Assembly: GCA_002453165.1 (NCBI GenBank)
Contig: DKGH01000158.1
Span: forward strand, 1 to 63,275
Direction of reading: 5' to 3'
Source: Verrucomicrobia bacterium UBA6775
Lineage (GTDB): Bacteria; Verrucomicrobiota; Verrucomicrobiia; Limisphaerales; UBA1096
Length of the DNA stretch: 63,275 nucleotides
Shown: in pieces, positions 783 to 63,275 of the stretch
Position numbering within the stretch: position 1 is the first letter of the stretch
Layout: each line of letters starts with the position of its first letter
Position numbers and translations under genes: made by a program
The notes under the pieces: model-generated
What the model saw: the letters and a program-made list of their open reading frames with translations, nothing else
What the model was told of the DNA's origin: nothing
The model's database searches: none

Positions 783-808
783 CGCTTGGCCAAGCGCTTG
801 GCTAAGCG
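783..808. repeat. iterated palindrome, double unit (second unit GGCT variant)
   Basis: cgcttggccaagcgcttggctaagcg, 14 nt upstream of the DUF1552 ATG at 822. Confidence 0.9.
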
Positions 809-821
809 GAGTGTTGCTTTG

Positions 822-2084
822 ATGAACGTTGACAGACGAAATTTCTTGAAGGGCGCTGGCGTGGCCATTGCGTTGCCGCTGCTTGAGTCGATGCCTGCCC
901 TGCGCGCGGCGCAAAAGGCCGCCAAGAGTGCAGGGCCGGTGAAGCGGTTTGTTTGTTTGTCGAACAATTACGGTATTTATAAGAAGGGCTTTTTCCCTGC
1001 CACGGCGGGCACGGATTACGTGTTGCCGCCGACGCTGAATCCGCTTGAGCGGCATCGCAGGGATTTCACGGTCTTCTCCAATCTCGACCACGGCAACACG
1101 GGCGGGCATCAGGGCGTGCCTGTGCTGCTCAGTGGTGTGCGGCCGCATCTGGCGGCGGGTTTTCCGGAAGGCAATATCAGCCTCGACCAGAAAATGGCCG
1201 AACACGTGGGCGCGGCCACGCGGTTTCCGTCGCTGACGGTTCGCGTGAATGAAGCCAATTTCACCAGCTTCACGCGTACGGGAGTGCAGGTGCCGGCGAT
1301 TGATTTGCGGCAAACGTATCGCGCCTTGTTCCTCGAGGAACCGGCCGCAGCCAAGGCCAAGCAACGGCAGCAATTCAAGCTGCACGGCAGTATTTTGGAT
1401 GTGGTGCTGGAGCAGGCGAAAGCGGTGAAGGGCGAGCTCGGTAAGCAGGATCAGCACAAGTTTGAGGAGTACCTCGACTCGGTGCGGTCGCTGGAGAAAA
1501 AGATCGTGCAACAGGAGCCGTGGATCGACCAGCCCAAGCCGAAGACCGATCAGCCCGAGCCGCCTCAAGGCAAGGGCACGGCGGCCGATCTCAAGGCGAT
1601 GATAGAGCTGATTGCGCTGGCGATCCAGACCGACTCCACGCGAGCGATCACGCTTTCGTCCGGTTTTGTGAATGGCGACTTCGGGCTCAACGGCGGCTAC
1701 CACGGTTTTTCGCATCACGGCAATCGCGACAGCCACACCAGTGCGCTGATGAAGATCGAGGCCAACATGACCACGCAGATGGCGCACCTGCTTGACCTGC
1801 TCAAGGCGCACCCGGATCCCATCAACGGCGGCACATTGCTCGATCACACGATGGTGTTCTTCGGCTGCGGCATGGCCACGGGCACGCACTCCACGAAAAA
1901 CCTCCCGCTGCTGCTCGCGGGCGGCGGCTTCAAGCACGGCGAGTCGAAGATTTATCCAGAAGAAGATGCCCAGCGCGTGCCGGCGGCGAACCTGCTGCTG
2001 TCCATGCTGCAGAACTTCGGTGTGGAAGCCGACCGCTTTGGCACCAGCTCCGGCACCCTGACCGGCCTCGAGCGGAAATCATGA
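822..2084 (+). CDS. DUF1552 (HXXSHH) family protein with Tat-type signal
   Basis: N-terminus MNVDRRNFLKGAGVAIALPLLES has a twin-arginine motif. Internal GYHGFSHHGN matches the HXXSHH signature. ORF-track start 786 lies inside the palindromic repeat, so ATG 822 is preferred. The stop overlaps the next start (ATGA at 2081-2084). Confidence 0.85.
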   Translation: MNVDRRNFLKGAGVAIALPLLESMPALRAAQKAAKSAGPVKRFVCLSNNYGIYKKGFFPATAGTDYVLPPTLNPLERHRRDFTVFSNLDHGNTGGHQGVPVLLSGVRPHLAAGFPEGNISLDQKMAEHVGAATRFPSLTVRVNEANFTSFTRTGVQVPAIDLRQTYRALFLEEPAAAKAKQRQQFKLHGSILDVVLEQAKAVKGELGKQDQHKFEEYLDSVRSLEKKIVQQEPWIDQPKPKTDQPEPPQGKGTAADLKAMIELIALAIQTDSTRAITLSSGFVNGDFGLNGGYHGFSHHGNRDSHTSALMKIEANMTTQMAHLLDLLKAHPDPINGGTLLDHTMVFFGCGMATGTHSTKNLPLLLAGGGFKHGESKIYPEEDAQRVPAANLLLSMLQNFGVEADRFGTSSGTLTGLERKS

Positions 2085-60698: not shown

Positions 60699-60707
60699 GA
60701 AATTGTT

Positions 60708-63275
60708 TTACAGGGTGAAGGCTTCCTCGATGAGCTTGGTCTGCTCTAGCAGGTGGATGGCGCGTGAACCGGTGGCCGGGCTGGCCGAGGCGTCGCGACC
60801 GGCATAGATGATCTCCTGCCCCAGCAGTTTGCGGAGGCGGGGTTCCATGAAAAACCAAGCGCCCATGTTTTCCGATTCCTCCTGACACCAGACGAACTGG
60901 CTCGCCTCGGGATGGTGCCGGAGCGCCTCGCGCAGCCGCGCCTCGTGCAGCGGGTAGTGCTGCTCGATGCGGATGATCGCGGCATCGTCGATGTTGTTTT
61001 GCTCCCGGTACTCCTCGAGGTCGTAGTAAACCTTGCCGGTGCAGAAGATGACGCGCTTGGCCGAGGCGTTTTCCTTTGTGTCCGGGATGATCTCCCGAAA
61101 CTCGCCTTCGCTGAGATCCTCGAGCGACGAGGTGCAGCGCGGGTCACGGAGCAGACTCTTGGGCGTCATTATGACGAGCGGCTTGTTGAACGGCCGGTAA
61201 AGCTGCCGTCGCAATGCGTGGAACAGGTTGGCCGGGGTGGTGAAGTTGCCGACCTGGATATTGTCCTCGGCGCACGCCTGCAGGAAGCGCTCAAGCCGGC
61301 CGCTCGAGTGTTCCGGTCCCTGTCCCTCATAGCCGTGCGGCAGCAGCAGCACGATGTTGGAGGTCTCGTTCCACTTGCTCTCGGAGGAGGCGATAAACTG
61401 GTCGATGATCACCTGCGCGCCGTTGGCGAAGTCGCCAAACTGCGCCTCCCACAGCAGCAGCATGTTGGGGTAGTCCAGCGAGTAGCCGAATTCGAAACCC
61501 AGCACCGCGGCCTCGGTCAGCGGGCTGTTGAAGATGCGGAAATCGGCCTGCTGCGGCGCGAGTTTGCGGAGCGGCAGATAGCGGCGGCGAGTGCCCACCT
61601 CGTAGTACACCGCATGCCGGTGGCTGAACGTGCCGCGTCGGACGTCCTGCCCGGAGAGGCGCACAGGGATGTCCTCGGTCAAAAGTGTGCCGAAGGCCAG
61701 CGCCTCGGCCATGCCCCAGTCGAGCGGCCGTTCGCCCTCGACCATCTCGCGGCGCTGCTTGATCAGGCGTTGAATCTTCGGGTTGAGCGCGAACTCATCC
61801 GGTTCGGAGGTCAGCGGCATGCCCACTTCGCGAAGCCGCTCGAGGGTGACTGCGGTGTTGGCCGGATCGAGCATCTCCGGCGTCGAGAGCTGCGGCCGGA
61901 TGGCCGGCTTTAGCTTTTGCGTCTCGCTTCGGGACTCGTTGCGTGCGCACTCGAGTGCAGTGCGGAATGAGTTTCGGAACGACTGGGCCTCCTCGTGGTC
62001 GATCACTCCCTCCTCGATCAACGACTTGAGAAATACGTCGCTGACCACCGGCTGCTTGGCGATGGCGGCGTAGAGGCGCGGCTGGGTGAAACTCGGCTCA
62101 TCGCCTTCATTGTGGCCGTGTTTGCGGTAGCAGACGATGTCCACCACCACGTCGCGGCCGAATTGTTGTCGGAAATCCAGCGCCATCTCAATGCAGTGCA
62201 CCGCGGCTACCGGGTCGTTGCCGTTCACGTGAAAAATCGGCACATCCAGCATCTTCGCCGTGGCGGTACAGTAAAGTGTGGATCGTGCGTCCTGCGGCAG
62301 CGTGGTGAACCCGATCTGGTTGTTGACCACGATGTGCACCGTGCCACCGGTCTTGTAGCCGTCGAGCTGCGACATGTTGAACGTCTCCGCCACAATGCCC
62401 TGCCCGATGAAAGCGCCGTCGCCGTGGATTATCACCGGCAATACCTTTTTCCGCTCCTCCGAGTCATTGACCAGGCGCTGAAAGGCACGCGCCTTGCCCT
62501 GTACCACCGGCGTCACCGCTTCGAGGTGGCTGGGGTTCGGGGCGAGGTTGATGCTCACCTTGCCGCCGTCGACCGTGGTGCGGGTGTTCTCAAAACCGAG
62601 GTGATACTTCACGTCACCGTCACCGTGGGCGACCTGCTGCACGTAGTTGTCGCTGAATTCGTCGAACAAGAACTTGTAGTCCTTGCCGATGATGTTGGCC
62701 AACACGTTGAGCCGGCCGCGGTGAGCCATGCCCATCGCGATCTTAAACACCCCCCGGCTCGGCGATGCCTGAATGATGGCGTCGAGCACCGGGATCAGCG
62801 TCTCGCCGCCCTCGAGCGAAAACCGCTTTTGGCCGACGTAACTGGTGTGCAGGAATTTCTCGAACTGCTCGGCGTCCATCAGGCTCTTGAGGATGCGCCG
62901 TTTTTTTTCGCCTGAATAATTCGGCCGATTGAGCGACGACTCCATCCGGTCACGCAGCCAGCGTCGAATCTCGAAATTCTGGATGTGCATGTACTGCGCA
63001 CCAACTGTGCGGCAGTAGGTGTCCTGCAGAATTTGCAGGATTTCGCGCAGTGTTTTCTGGCCACCCCCACCGGCGCTGCCGGCGTTGAACTCCTGATCGA
63101 GATCCGCATCGGTGAACTTGAAATTGTGCAGATCCAGCTCCGGCAGCTCTTTTTTGTTGAAGCCTAGCGGATCAATGTTCGCGATGTAGTGCCCCAGCAT
63201 CCGGTAGGCGAACAGCAGGTGCGAGAGGCGTCCCTGCCGCATCGGATCCACCGCCGGCAGTGCTGCAGTCGGCTC
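60708..63275 (-). CDS. sucA: 2-oxoglutarate dehydrogenase E1 component (N-terminus outside window)
   Basis: GYKTGGTVHIVVNNQIGFTT, YRKHGHNEGDEP and LLLPHGYEGQGPEHSS. The frame stays open to the window edge. Confidence 0.9.
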   Translation of the reverse strand, partial: EPTAALPAVDPMRQGRLSHLLFAYRMLGHYIANIDPLGFNKKELPELDLHNFKFTDADLDQEFNAGSAGGGGQKTLREILQILQDTYCRTVGAQYMHIQNFEIRRWLRDRMESSLNRPNYSGEKKRRILKSLMDAEQFEKFLHTSYVGQKRFSLEGGETLIPVLDAIIQASPSRGVFKIAMGMAHRGRLNVLANIIGKDYKFLFDEFSDNYVQQVAHGDGDVKYHLGFENTRTTVDGGKVSINLAPNPSHLEAVTPVVQGKARAFQRLVNDSEERKKVLPVIIHGDGAFIGQGIVAETFNMSQLDGYKTGGTVHIVVNNQIGFTTLPQDARSTLYCTATAKMLDVPIFHVNGNDPVAAVHCIEMALDFRQQFGRDVVVDIVCYRKHGHNEGDEPSFTQPRLYAAIAKQPVVSDVFLKSLIEEGVIDHEEAQSFRNSFRTALECARNESRSETQKLKPAIRPQLSTPEMLDPANTAVTLERLREVGMPLTSEPDEFALNPKIQRLIKQRREMVEGERPLDWGMAEALAFGTLLTEDIPVRLSGQDVRRGTFSHRHAVYYEVGTRRRYLPLRKLAPQQADFRIFNSPLTEAAVLGFEFGYSLDYPNMLLLWEAQFGDFANGAQVIIDQFIASSESKWNETSNIVLLLPHGYEGQGPEHSSGRLERFLQACAEDNIQVGNFTTPANLFHALRRQLYRPFNKPLVIMTPKSLLRDPRCTSSLEDLSEGEFREIIPDTKENASAKRVIFCTGKVYYDLEEYREQNNIDDAAIIRIEQHYPLHEARLREALRHHPEASQFVWCQEESENMGAWFFMEPRLRKLLGQEIIYAGRDASASPATGSRAIHLLEQTKLIEEAFTL

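Follow-up and report, generated by a model that had tools for sequence, protein, structure and literature searches.

A highly iterated DNA palindrome resembling HIP1 and uptake sequences in a marine clade of Verrucomicrobiota

The closest described counterpart of the element reported here is the highly iterated palindrome HIP1 of cyanobacteria, which reaches 300-2700 copies per Mb with observed-to-expected ratios (O/E) of 55-228 (PMC4390886), is enriched in all reading frames with no bias towards gene ends, and has an abundance that, according to the literature, is not seen outside cyanobacteria (PMC5861425). About 30 years after HIP1 became known, its function is only now being tied to methylation-dependent transformation, with recent work proposing it as a phylum-wide uptake or 'self' mark. 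A second family comprises the DNA uptake sequences and uptake signal sequences (DUS/USS) of Neisseria and Pasteurellaceae, which often lie just downstream of genes as inverted pairs. Here we analysed a 63,275-nt stretch of DNA (contig DKGH01000158.1 of Verrucomicrobia bacterium UBA6775; the whole stretch is referred to as the window), in which a 14-nt palindrome, CGCTTGGCCAAGCG, and above all its 8-nt core, TTGGCCAA, recur throughout. With a probability of roughly 0.6, we consider CGCTTGGCCAAGCG to be a genome-wide DNA signature word of the HIP1/uptake-sequence class that evolved independently in a clade of marine Verrucomicrobiota.

The core TTGGCCAA was found 61 times in the window, from position 786 to position 62702, compared to 1.6 on average and at most 6 in dinucleotide shuffles, and the perfect 14-mer CGCTTGGCCAAGCG was found 20 times and never in shuffles. 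A preliminary description, made from the letters alone, had put these numbers at about 60 and about 20, with a composition expectation of about 0.8 for the 8-mer, and all three estimates agreed with the recount (0.83 recomputed). The density of 964 per Mb, or roughly one copy per gene, corresponds to an O/E of ~73 by base composition, 38 by dinucleotide shuffle and 16 by an order-3 Markov model (3.7 expected). The expectation rose to 15, 30 and 51 under Markov orders 4, 5 and 6, because the 5- to 7-mers that feed these models are almost wholly derived from the motif; over 867 kb of related DNA, an order-2 background with the motif masked predicted 35.7 copies against 933 observed, so the excess that the preliminary description had proposed to check against Markov models persisted under order 3 and against the masked background. 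All five top 8-mers of the window were sub-words of the motif, TTGGCCAA led the 8-nt palindromes by 4-fold, and the second-ranked palindrome, AAGCGCTT (15 copies), was the junction of the tandem doubles described below. Sites at Hamming distance 0, 1, 2 and 3 from CGCTTGGCCAAGCG numbered 20, 22, 18 and 22, respectively, compared to 0, 0, 0.7 and 7.5 under an order-2 Markov model, and from this mismatch profile the window holds about 75 real sites. Like HIP1, the word is a short, GC-rich, perfectly palindromic and hyper-abundant octamer at ~1 per kb, and both its density and its O/E of ~73 lie inside the HIP1 range. It differs from HIP1 in sequence, in phylum and in its 14-nt consensus; the HIP1 word itself, GCGATCGC, did not rank in the top 15 of the window's 8-nt palindromes and so has at most 4 copies there.

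Selection is on the word as DNA and not on a peptide that it encodes. Within called genes, it is read as Leu-Ala-Lys/Asn (LAK/LAN) in frame 0, as Leu-Gly-Gln (LGQ) in frame 1 and, rarely, as Trp-Pro (WP) in frame 2. LAK was spelled TTGGCCAAR in 23 of 32 window cases (2.8 expected from codon usage), and LGQ was spelled CTTGGCCAA, with the minor codons CTT and CAA, in 17 of 23 (0.43 expected). As in HIP1, copies lay both in genes and in spacers: 12 or 13 of the 61 were intergenic, depending on one unannotated open reading frame (ORF), and in the pooled 867 kb 24% of sites were intergenic, compared to 14.8% non-coding DNA, with 76% inside coding sequence. This fixed synonymous spelling, together with the intergenic copies, indicates that the word is selected as DNA and that protein sequence is dragged along, in keeping with the earlier verdict that a protein-level explanation fails (21-24% intergenic over the two data sets). 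All three frames were in use, as also reported earlier, although their use was strongly unequal, at 423 LAK/LAN, 252 LGQ and 34 WP sites in the 867 kb (60/36/5%), a skew much stronger than that reported for HIP1, which is enriched in all frames. Such a DNA-level word can measurably reshape proteins: in the window, LAK occurred 32 times against 8.9 expected (3.6-fold), LGQ 23 times against 5.4 (4.2-fold), LGQA 18 times against 0.5 (36-fold) and ALGQA 9 times against 0.05, while the reversed peptides KAL and QGL showed no enrichment in the window proteins.

Pfam hits identify the window as chromosomal DNA bearing genes of the PSCyt/PSD, DUF1501, DUF1552 and sulfatase families, together with those for PdxA, HU, PurS/PurQ, GlgC, MutS, DnaB, BamA, OmpH, Lpd, SucB and SucA. 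The exact Lpd protein was found with identical gene order on marine metagenome contigs (Tara and others, 68 index blocks), SucB homologues were labelled as metagenome-assembled genomes (MAGs) of Verrucomicrobia, Verrucomicrobiota or Verrucomicrobiales, and the closest cultured relative by SucB was Pelagicoccus (~55% identity); judged by these homologies, the source belongs to the marine Verrucomicrobiota and is both abundant and uncultured. A planctomycete origin, suggested by the PSD/PSCyt domains, was excluded by the SucB homologues. Syntenic loci (sucA-sucB-lpd-ompH-bamA-dnaB-mutS) were gathered via SucB homologues, and the density of TTGGCCAA in them was clade-specific: high-GC relatives had ~10 copies per 10 kb and low-GC sisters 1.2-3.7, against a background of 0.3 elsewhere. 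Specifically, it was 8.4-10.7 per 10 kb in the home species (L001-L006, SucB of the same species, GC 58-59%), 10.1 in L007 (SucB 89-91%, GC 62%), 11.4-12.2 in L008/L009 (SucB 81%, GC 63%), 3.7 in L334 (SucB 75%, GC 45%), 2.8 in L010/L011 (SucB 74-77%, GC 43%) and 1.2-1.4 in L012/L013 (SucB 73-75%, GC 45%); one copy was present in 15 kb of L335 (SucB 71%, GC 41%) and one in 21 kb of Pelagicoccus (SucB ~54%, GC 53%), and 80 other bacterial species among the matches listed, including other Opitutales (1.30 Mb, SucB ≤53%, varied GC), had 0.3 per 10 kb. HIP1 is clade-specific as well, its sister lineages having weaker words or other ones, and a family-specific word of ~10-12 nt at ~1 per kb, possibly with 'dialects', is also what DUS/USS present. 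Metagenome matches to the 20-nt double comprised at least 120 stretches (841 kb, GC 48-65%), the descriptively named ones all being marine; these loci were ascertained by the double, and the sites concerned were left out when conservation, post-stop density and spacer types were tested.

When seven orthologous genes were aligned by codon, sites were seen to arise through point substitution at orthologous positions, with lineage-specific gains and losses and with one-off variants occupying the same place in relatives. The commonest single difference was the outer T/C (or A/G) transition at T1/A8 (35 of 51), which is synonymous in both main frames, and motif-creating amino-acid changes were also seen (LSQ>LGQ, ELGD>ALGQ, TQAN>TLAN, ALDQA>ALGQA); where the preliminary description had envisaged mostly synonymous substitution or small insertions, the alignments thus gave substitution that was partly non-synonymous. 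Exact 12-nt duplications and a few spacer indels were the exceptions to this spread by substitution, which HIP1 shares. At 70-80% nucleotide identity 52% of motif sites were retained compared to 15% of all 8-mers, at 80-90% identity 67% compared to 35%, and at 90-98% identity 75% compared to 52%; in loci fetched by protein, and hence free of motif ascertainment, retention was 11/12 versus 47% and 8/20 versus 20%. Retention of sites was therefore roughly double that of other 8-mers, and conservation above control octamers between genomes is again a property of HIP1. With an O/E of ~73, an origin by substitution and retention above background, the behaviour akin to HIP1 and uptake sequences that had been surmised from the window is supported.

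The copies shared little beyond the word itself. Given the core, the flanks going outward were C-1 in 86%, G-2 in 74% and C-3 in 66%, mirrored on the other side, and mismatches in near-matches numbered 35, 30, 14, 24, 12, 4 and 5 per half-position from outer to inner, the GGCC centre being the most constant part and the outer positions the most variable; HIP1 likewise extends palindromically past its 8-mer, with deviations mostly at outer positions. Sequence beyond the 14-mer had an identity of 0.299, compared to 0.293 at random positions, and no pair exceeded 0.6. Such unrelated flanks mean that the copies are independent and do not sit in a longer element or, a possibility raised in the preliminary description, in paralogous duplicated segments.

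Some copies are tandem doubles, a feature that sets the word apart from HIP1. The perfect 20-mer double TTGGCCAAGCGCTTGGCCAA occurred 4 times in the window and the double junction CCAAGCGCTTGG 13 times, and repeat families of imperfect doubles had 11-17 members; the earlier figure of ~15 tandem doubles therefore holds if imperfect ones are counted and fails for perfect ones, of which there were only 4. That doubles are palindromic was correctly seen, as TTGGCCAAGCGCTTGGCCAA is its own reverse complement and hence a 20-bp palindrome in its own right. Pooled related DNA contained 122 doubles and no triples, ruling out open-ended tandem expansion, and between relatives 85-96% identical the single and the double state differed by exact 12-nt indels. 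Doubles are thus a discrete state, made through exact 12-nt duplication. Quasi-periodic spacing over 10-90 kb belongs to the HIP class; at short range, clusters of sites in the 63-kb window were spaced more evenly than random (coefficient of variation 0.67 versus 0.87, P ~0.04).

With respect to genes, stop distances are exact, while start distances are approximate, gene starts having been taken from the longest ORFs filtered on GC content at third codon positions (GC3). At least one site was present in 31 of 36 window genes; 21 of 36 had a site within -100..+200 of the start (9.1 at random), and 18 of 36 within -100..+60 of the stop (5.1 at random). The first tenth of genes carried 23% of genic sites in the 867-kb pool. 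The sharpest concentration lay directly after stop codons, with 6.5 sites per kb at nt 1-10 (10.8 with doubles), 2.9 at nt 11-20 and 1-2 beyond, the typical layout being a stop codon, 1-6 nt and then (C)CGCTTGGCCAAGCG. Unlike HIP1, the word is therefore concentrated at gene ends, chiefly right after stop codons, and it resembles DUS/USS in this downstream preference by analogy only. Relaxed constraint accounts for the sites in signal peptides, linkers and protein ends, but not for the peak in the first 10 nt.

The results thus describe a DNA-level word that persists above background, occurs in one clade only and gathers at gene ends. Point substitutions create it at independent places, at the cost of minor codons and amino-acid changes, an exact 12-nt duplication turns it into the discrete 20-bp palindrome, and it settles where it costs least, namely in the LAK and LGQ frames, signal peptides, linkers and protein ends, much as DUS/USS, at ~one per kb, are built by point mutation in the cheapest frames and positions. 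Being perfectly palindromic, with information that falls off on both sides of a GGCC/TGGCCA centre, the word may be the footprint of a symmetric (dimeric) DNA-binding or DNA-modifying protein; the activity of such a putative clade-specific reader may drive retention, and a biased repair process may supply new sites. The likeliest role would be that of a mark of 'own' DNA favouring uptake, recombination or repair of conspecific DNA, a role now proposed for HIP1; with thousands of copies per genome and retention above background, the word matches the behaviour of HIP1 and of uptake sequences. A more specific version, which we offer tentatively and with the odds against it, holds that the word is the recognition site of a dedicated predicted reader, either a dimeric uptake/recombination receptor or a methylation-coupled self marker, and that its placement at gene boundaries punctuates the chromosome into gene-sized exchangeable units; if true, this would be the first uptake or self-recognition sequence to be palindromic, and the HIP phenomenon would have originated independently a second time.

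Several points weigh against a signature word of the HIP1/uptake-sequence class. The home genome was represented by 63 kb only, plus fragments of relatives. Within this material the motif could not be connected with any reader protein, nor with the methyltransferase, Vsr-like nuclease or competence genes that the preliminary description had suggested looking for. A screen for motif IV (PCQxFS) and xPPY, followed by PROSITE N6/N4/C5 patterns, yielded no m5C, N4 or N6 methyltransferase signature in 4355 ORFs from 1.18 Mb of motif-rich DNA, which is a small part of any genome; ten candidates proved by Pfam to be other enzymes, heparinase, RecA and acetate kinase among them. A cognate (orphan) methyltransferase for an internal sub-site is a mark of the HIP class. 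To our knowledge, the established uptake sequences are not palindromic; DUS/USS are asymmetric, read in one orientation and taken up preferentially through a competence receptor (a ComP-type pilin or an equivalent), unlike the word in that it is its own reverse complement. Nor do we know of natural transformation in Verrucomicrobiota, or of competence machinery or uptake bias in this clade. The gene-end and frame biases, absent in HIP1, make the HIP1 analogy incomplete. A ratchet of mutation or repair alone would likewise give retention above background, so that functional selection is not proven. In favour of the class, the word also occurs, here again unlike DUS/USS, on a phage-like contig (L082:1-13670, IMGVR_UViG_3300032087_002358) encoding a terminase large subunit, a DnaB-type helicase, a DnaD-like loader and an exonuclease, where 8 copies of TTGGCCAA, mostly with C...G flanks and scattered through the genes, were found in 13.7 kb (~0.2 expected). 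This contig may be a virus of the same clade, but the host link is unproven and its DnaB is just 32% identical to that of the window. Elsewhere in viral collections the matches listed to the 14-mer were single chance copies, and the 20-mer double was absent from viral contigs. The word's presence on this contig speaks for a process that affects whatever DNA resides in these cells.

Such a process is central to the best-surviving alternative, which we regard as rather unlikely: that the word is a functionless by-product of biased repair, produced by a methylation-linked very-short-patch or mismatch-repair ratchet as in Elhai's model of HIP1, with no reader afterwards. GGCC and TGGCCA, both contained in the core, are typical methyltransferase targets. 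Single substitutions make sites and one-off variants are common at orthologous places, both as a ratchet would have it; above-background retention is predicted as well, and copies on a phage-like contig would follow if conversion affected all DNA that replicates in these cells. The gathering of mismatches at outer positions also recalls HIP1 (PMC4390886). Against this alternative, neither a methyltransferase nor a Vsr signature was found in the DNA sampled (~1.2 Mb), and the C>T deamination products of the core were not depleted (TTGGTCAA/TTGACCAA O/E 1.7, TTGGCTAA/TTAGCCAA O/E 2.75), the signature of Dcm/Vsr in E. coli being the known contrast. Changes of the deamination type, that is, G>A/C>T transitions of the GGCC centre, made up just 3 of 51 orthologous one-base differences, and a very-short-patch repair signature was accordingly rejected. 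A uniform ratchet alone would also leave unexplained the 5-10-fold post-stop peak (first 10 nt versus the rest of the spacers) and the strict limit at two tandem copies.

The post-stop peak is the starting point of another explanation, an unlikely one, in which the word is a gene-boundary hairpin resembling repetitive extragenic palindromic sequences and their mosaic elements (REP/BIME), acting as a 3'-end stabiliser, a terminator or insulator, or a site for topoisomerase or a nucleoid protein, with genic copies as spill-over. REPs are ~35 nt long, imperfect, strictly extragenic and mobilised by RAYT transposases. The word is like REP/BIME in being palindromic, repeated and prone to lie directly past stop codons, and is unlike them in its 14-nt unit, its substitution origin and the 76% of its copies within genes, and no transposase was seen in the window. 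Besides the peak 1-10 nt past stop codons and the excess of genes with sites near stops and starts, a hairpin is favoured by the higher density of sites in convergent than in divergent spacers (1.99 versus 1.00 per kb) and by the longer palindromic arms of post-stop copies, 45% of which had at least 3 extra palindromic pairs, compared to 26% of copies in genes. Predicted single-strand folding reached -10.5 kcal/mol for the double and -22 kcal/mol with its flanks, but just -3.5 kcal/mol for the single 14-mer. No T-run was found after post-stop copies; downstream of lpd, low-GC relatives carry a normal hairpin-plus-T terminator ~45 nt further on, and in motif-bearing species the word sits between the stop codon and a later hairpin, which ruled out an intrinsic terminator. 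Moreover, the flanks are symmetric to gene direction, which counts against an RNA-strand-specific signal, and the only known RNA family detected in the window with Rfam and ARAGORN was a tRNA-Ser.

Two further groups of repeats invite comparison. Chi and the architecture-imparting octamers are likewise over-represented and have a DNA-level role in recombination or chromosome organisation, but they are non-palindromic and strand-skewed with replication, whereas a palindromic word cannot carry polarity. The NTS/SRM hairpin repeats of Neisseria and others are abundant and palindromic, are linked to the modulation of transformation and have a dedicated reader, the Ssn single-stranded-DNA nucleases (PMC11893778); unlike the word, they are ~30-nt hairpins with oriented flanks, intergenic and present in hundreds of copies around particular genes. 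No GIY-YIG gene adjoining motif copies was seen in the window.

The two remaining explanations are both very improbable. Selection on peptides, with LGQA serving signal-peptide cleavage, RLAKR serving helices or protein ends and the DNA word being secondary, would fit the excess of LGQA and ALGQA and the many LGQ-frame sites in N-terminal signal-peptide regions, but is already contradicted by one DNA word serving two main frames, a third rare one and spacers, by a spelling locked to TTGGCCAAR or CTTGGCCAA despite codon preference, by palindromic conservation of bases outside the peptide codons, and by cytoplasmic carriers such as MutS, the SucB linker, PdxA and DnaB. Descent from miniature mobile-element remnants or insertions, or from paralogous duplicated segments, could draw on the paralogous PSCyt/PSD, DUF1501, DUF1552 and sulfatase families of the window, on a few spacer copies that match length differences (the SucB-Lpd spacer, 39 nt versus 9-11 nt) and on one 11-nt indel immediately after a stop codon, but the flanks past the 14-mer are as unlike as random positions (0.299 versus 0.293), coding copies align gap-free to motif-less orthologues from which they differ by point substitutions, the sole recurrent indel is the exact 12-nt change between single and double, and neither an element body nor terminal repeats, target-site duplications or a transposase were seen in the window.

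Our literature search found no description of the 12-mer as a genomic motif, in agreement with the preliminary description, and none of a HIP-like element in Verrucomicrobiota or Planctomycetes, work on HIP being confined to cyanobacteria. What is new is the word, the phylum, the positional features (post-stop peak and frame bias) and the 20-bp doubles; the HIP/uptake-sequence phenomenon itself was already known. An independent and equally dense palindrome in marine Verrucomicrobiota provides a second natural experiment, in which the post-stop peak, the 20-bp doubles and the frame bias constrain models in ways that HIP1 cannot. The density steps between sister lineages (~10, ~2 and ~0.3 per 10 kb) mean that gene presence and absence across MAGs could reveal a reader or writer, and marine long-read metagenomes could reveal the methylation state of the word. 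For an abundant ocean clade, the word can also serve as a strong taxonomic marker when contigs and phages are binned, and its absence can flag a gene as recently acquired.

Two observations were made in loci outside the clade's motif-dense members. In L335:5966-15292 (GC 41%), where TTGGCCAA is not enriched, the top 8-nt palindrome was TTGATCAA, with 6 copies compared to 0.43 expected by composition, and the low-GC Opitutales loci L134 and L136 had 3 copies each; its outer arms are those of TTGGCCAA and its centre is GATC in place of GGCC, so it may be a 'dialect', although the signal is weak and unrelated bacteria reach 4 copies per locus. In L159:740-8665 (a Chitinophagales MAG, GC 38%), four copies of TTGGCCAA without C...G flanks occurred in 12 kb (~0.15 expected), a mild enrichment that is probably unrelated to the verrucomicrobial word.

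Along the window, with the coordinates of the core TTGGCCAA given unless a double is named, the first site was a perfect 14-mer in an imperfect double at the start of a DUF1552 ORF (786..793, LAK frame), followed in a PSCyt/PSD/PA14 gene by a perfect 14-mer at the N-terminus (2136..2143, LGQ frame) and a core with one flank mismatch (3854..3861, LAK frame). One of the two longest motif-free stretches came next (3862-7309, 3.4 kb; the other is 35312-39448, 4.1 kb); it includes a ceramidase-like/LamG gene (5159-7189) with a GC3 of 0.65, compared to 0.75-0.85 in its neighbours, and may be a recent acquisition in which the word has not yet accumulated. PSCyt/PSD coding sequence then carried a variant double, TTGGCCAAGGGCTTGGCCAA, with two cores at a 12-nt offset at the N-terminus (7310..7329), cores with two (7355..7362) and one (8903..8910) flank mismatches, and a core with one mismatch in the imperfect double GGCCAAGCGCTTGGCCAA (8987..8994), all in the LAK frame, as well as a core alone with three mismatches in the LAN frame (9647..9654). 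A sulfatase gene had a core alone with five flank mismatches, which may be due to chance (12385..12392, LAN frame). A perfect 14-mer in an imperfect double lay between genes, 26 nt upstream of the PdxA ORF (13199..13206), and two cores with two flank mismatches each lay inside PdxA (13384..13391, LAK frame) and at its C-terminus (14135..14142, LGQ frame). A PSCyt1-PSCyt2-PSD1 gene carried a perfect double TTGGCCAAGCGCTTGGCCAA in its signal-peptide region (15442..15461, encoding LGQALGQA) and a perfect 14-mer at its C-terminal end (17713..17720, LGQ frame); a core with one mismatch in an imperfect double followed in an unannotated ORF or intergenic DNA (17982..17989). The PSCyt3/PSD ORF had a core alone with five mismatches at its start, again possibly due to chance (19173..19180), and LAK-frame cores with four (20465..20472), one (21338..21345), four (21494..21501) and one (21569..21576) flank mismatches.

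Further on, a perfect 14-mer was located in the N-terminal region of a GFO/IDH/MocA oxidoreductase (22449..22456, LGQ frame), a core with one mismatch between genes, 8 nt past a DUF1501 stop (25125..25132), and, in the ketopantoate reductase gene, a core alone with five mismatches (26418..26425, LGQ frame) and a core with one mismatch at the C-terminus (26570..26577, LAK frame). Sulfatase genes held a perfect 14-mer in a signal-peptide region (26717..26724, LGQ frame), a core with one mismatch (26830..26837, LAK frame), and perfect 14-mers in a C-terminal region (29625..29632, LGQ frame) and in the last codons (29696..29703, RLAKR-stop); a perfect double was situated between genes, 9 nt past a sulfatase stop (28182..28201), with a degenerate third copy, CTGGCCAAGCG, 13 nt on. 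A perfect 14-mer in an imperfect double lay in the PurS ORF, in its 5' part and upstream of the PurS domain (31800..31807). Intergenic DNA contained a core with four mismatches (33657..33664) and a perfect 14-mer upstream of a beta-CASP RNase gene (33775..33782), whose N-terminus had a core with three mismatches (33883..33890, LGQ frame), and a core with one mismatch lay in a 29-nt convergent-gene spacer, 10 nt past a stop (35304..35311). A perfect 14-mer was present at the N-terminus of a Na/solute symporter (39449..39456, LGQ frame), and a core with one mismatch in a DUF3311 gene was read in the rare WP frame as AWPS (39534..39541). PQQ-like propeller coding sequence had cores with three mismatches in the LAN frame (40820..40827), two in the rare WP frame (41518..41525) and three in the LAK frame (42324..42331), and one with a single mismatch at an N-terminus (43707..43714, LAK frame).

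A second small repeat accompanies the word in the following region. This is GGGGACAGGAATGTTCCCC, a 19-nt imperfect hairpin with 4 copies in the window compared to 0.03 expected (45311-45329, 49908-49926, 49949-49967 and 57943-57961), all intergenic and 17-60 nt from a TTGGCCAA; with only 6 copies in the 867-kb pool, it seems specific to the home species. The neighbouring sites of the word included a perfect 14-mer between genes, 9 nt past a DUF1501 (-) stop (45348..45355). PSCyt-PSD1 coding sequence bore a perfect double at its C-terminal end (46869..46888, RLAKRLAK), a core with two mismatches (48579..48586, LAK frame) and a perfect 14-mer (49517..49524, LGQ frame), and a core with one mismatch lay between genes, upstream of a PSCyt-PSD1 gene (49882..49889). 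The tRNA-Ser (GCT; 50062-50151, minus strand), between MutS and a PSCyt-PSD1 gene, lies next to two copies each of the motif and of the GGGGACAGG hairpin; an intergenic core near it, in an imperfect double, had the palindromic variant flanks CACTTGGCCAAGTG (50005..50012).

The last part of the window overlaps the syntenic loci. In MutS, a perfect double consisting of two perfect 14-mers (52841..52860) encodes ALGQALGQA within an N-terminal extension that is not conserved; the extension belongs to MutS of the motif-dense species (L001:16458-19181), and of the low-GC L012 and L013, one has no such segment and the other an unrelated sequence in its place. A core with four mismatches in the C-terminal domain of DnaB (54084..54091, KALAK) was identical in all relatives (L011, L012, L013, L335:10814 and, less certainly, L334); the site is an old one, and its retention may be owed to the protein rather than to the word. 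BamA carried a core with two mismatches in an imperfect double in its signal-peptide region (54449..54456, LGQ frame), and OmpH a core with one mismatch at its N-terminus (57187..57194, LAK frame). A perfect 14-mer stood directly past the Lpd stop (57976..57983, TAG followed by CGCTTGGCCAAGCG), a position also occupied in L008, and a core with four mismatches inside the Lpd gene (58195..58202, GLAK) was likewise common to L008. The SucB-Lpd spacer (59379-59417) measured 39 nt, compared to 9-11 nt in the low-GC L011, L012, L334 and L335, and its extra DNA was essentially an imperfect double of the motif, which lay 5 nt past the SucB stop and whose core had one mismatch (59406..59413); in spacers, the word can thus also come with added length, besides substitution. 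Two perfect 14-mers fell in the inter-domain linker of SucB (60342..60349 and 60402..60409, both LGQ frame), and the final site was a core alone with six flank mismatches in the conserved peptide NVLANII of SucA (62695..62702), where low-GC relatives have TTAGCCAA.

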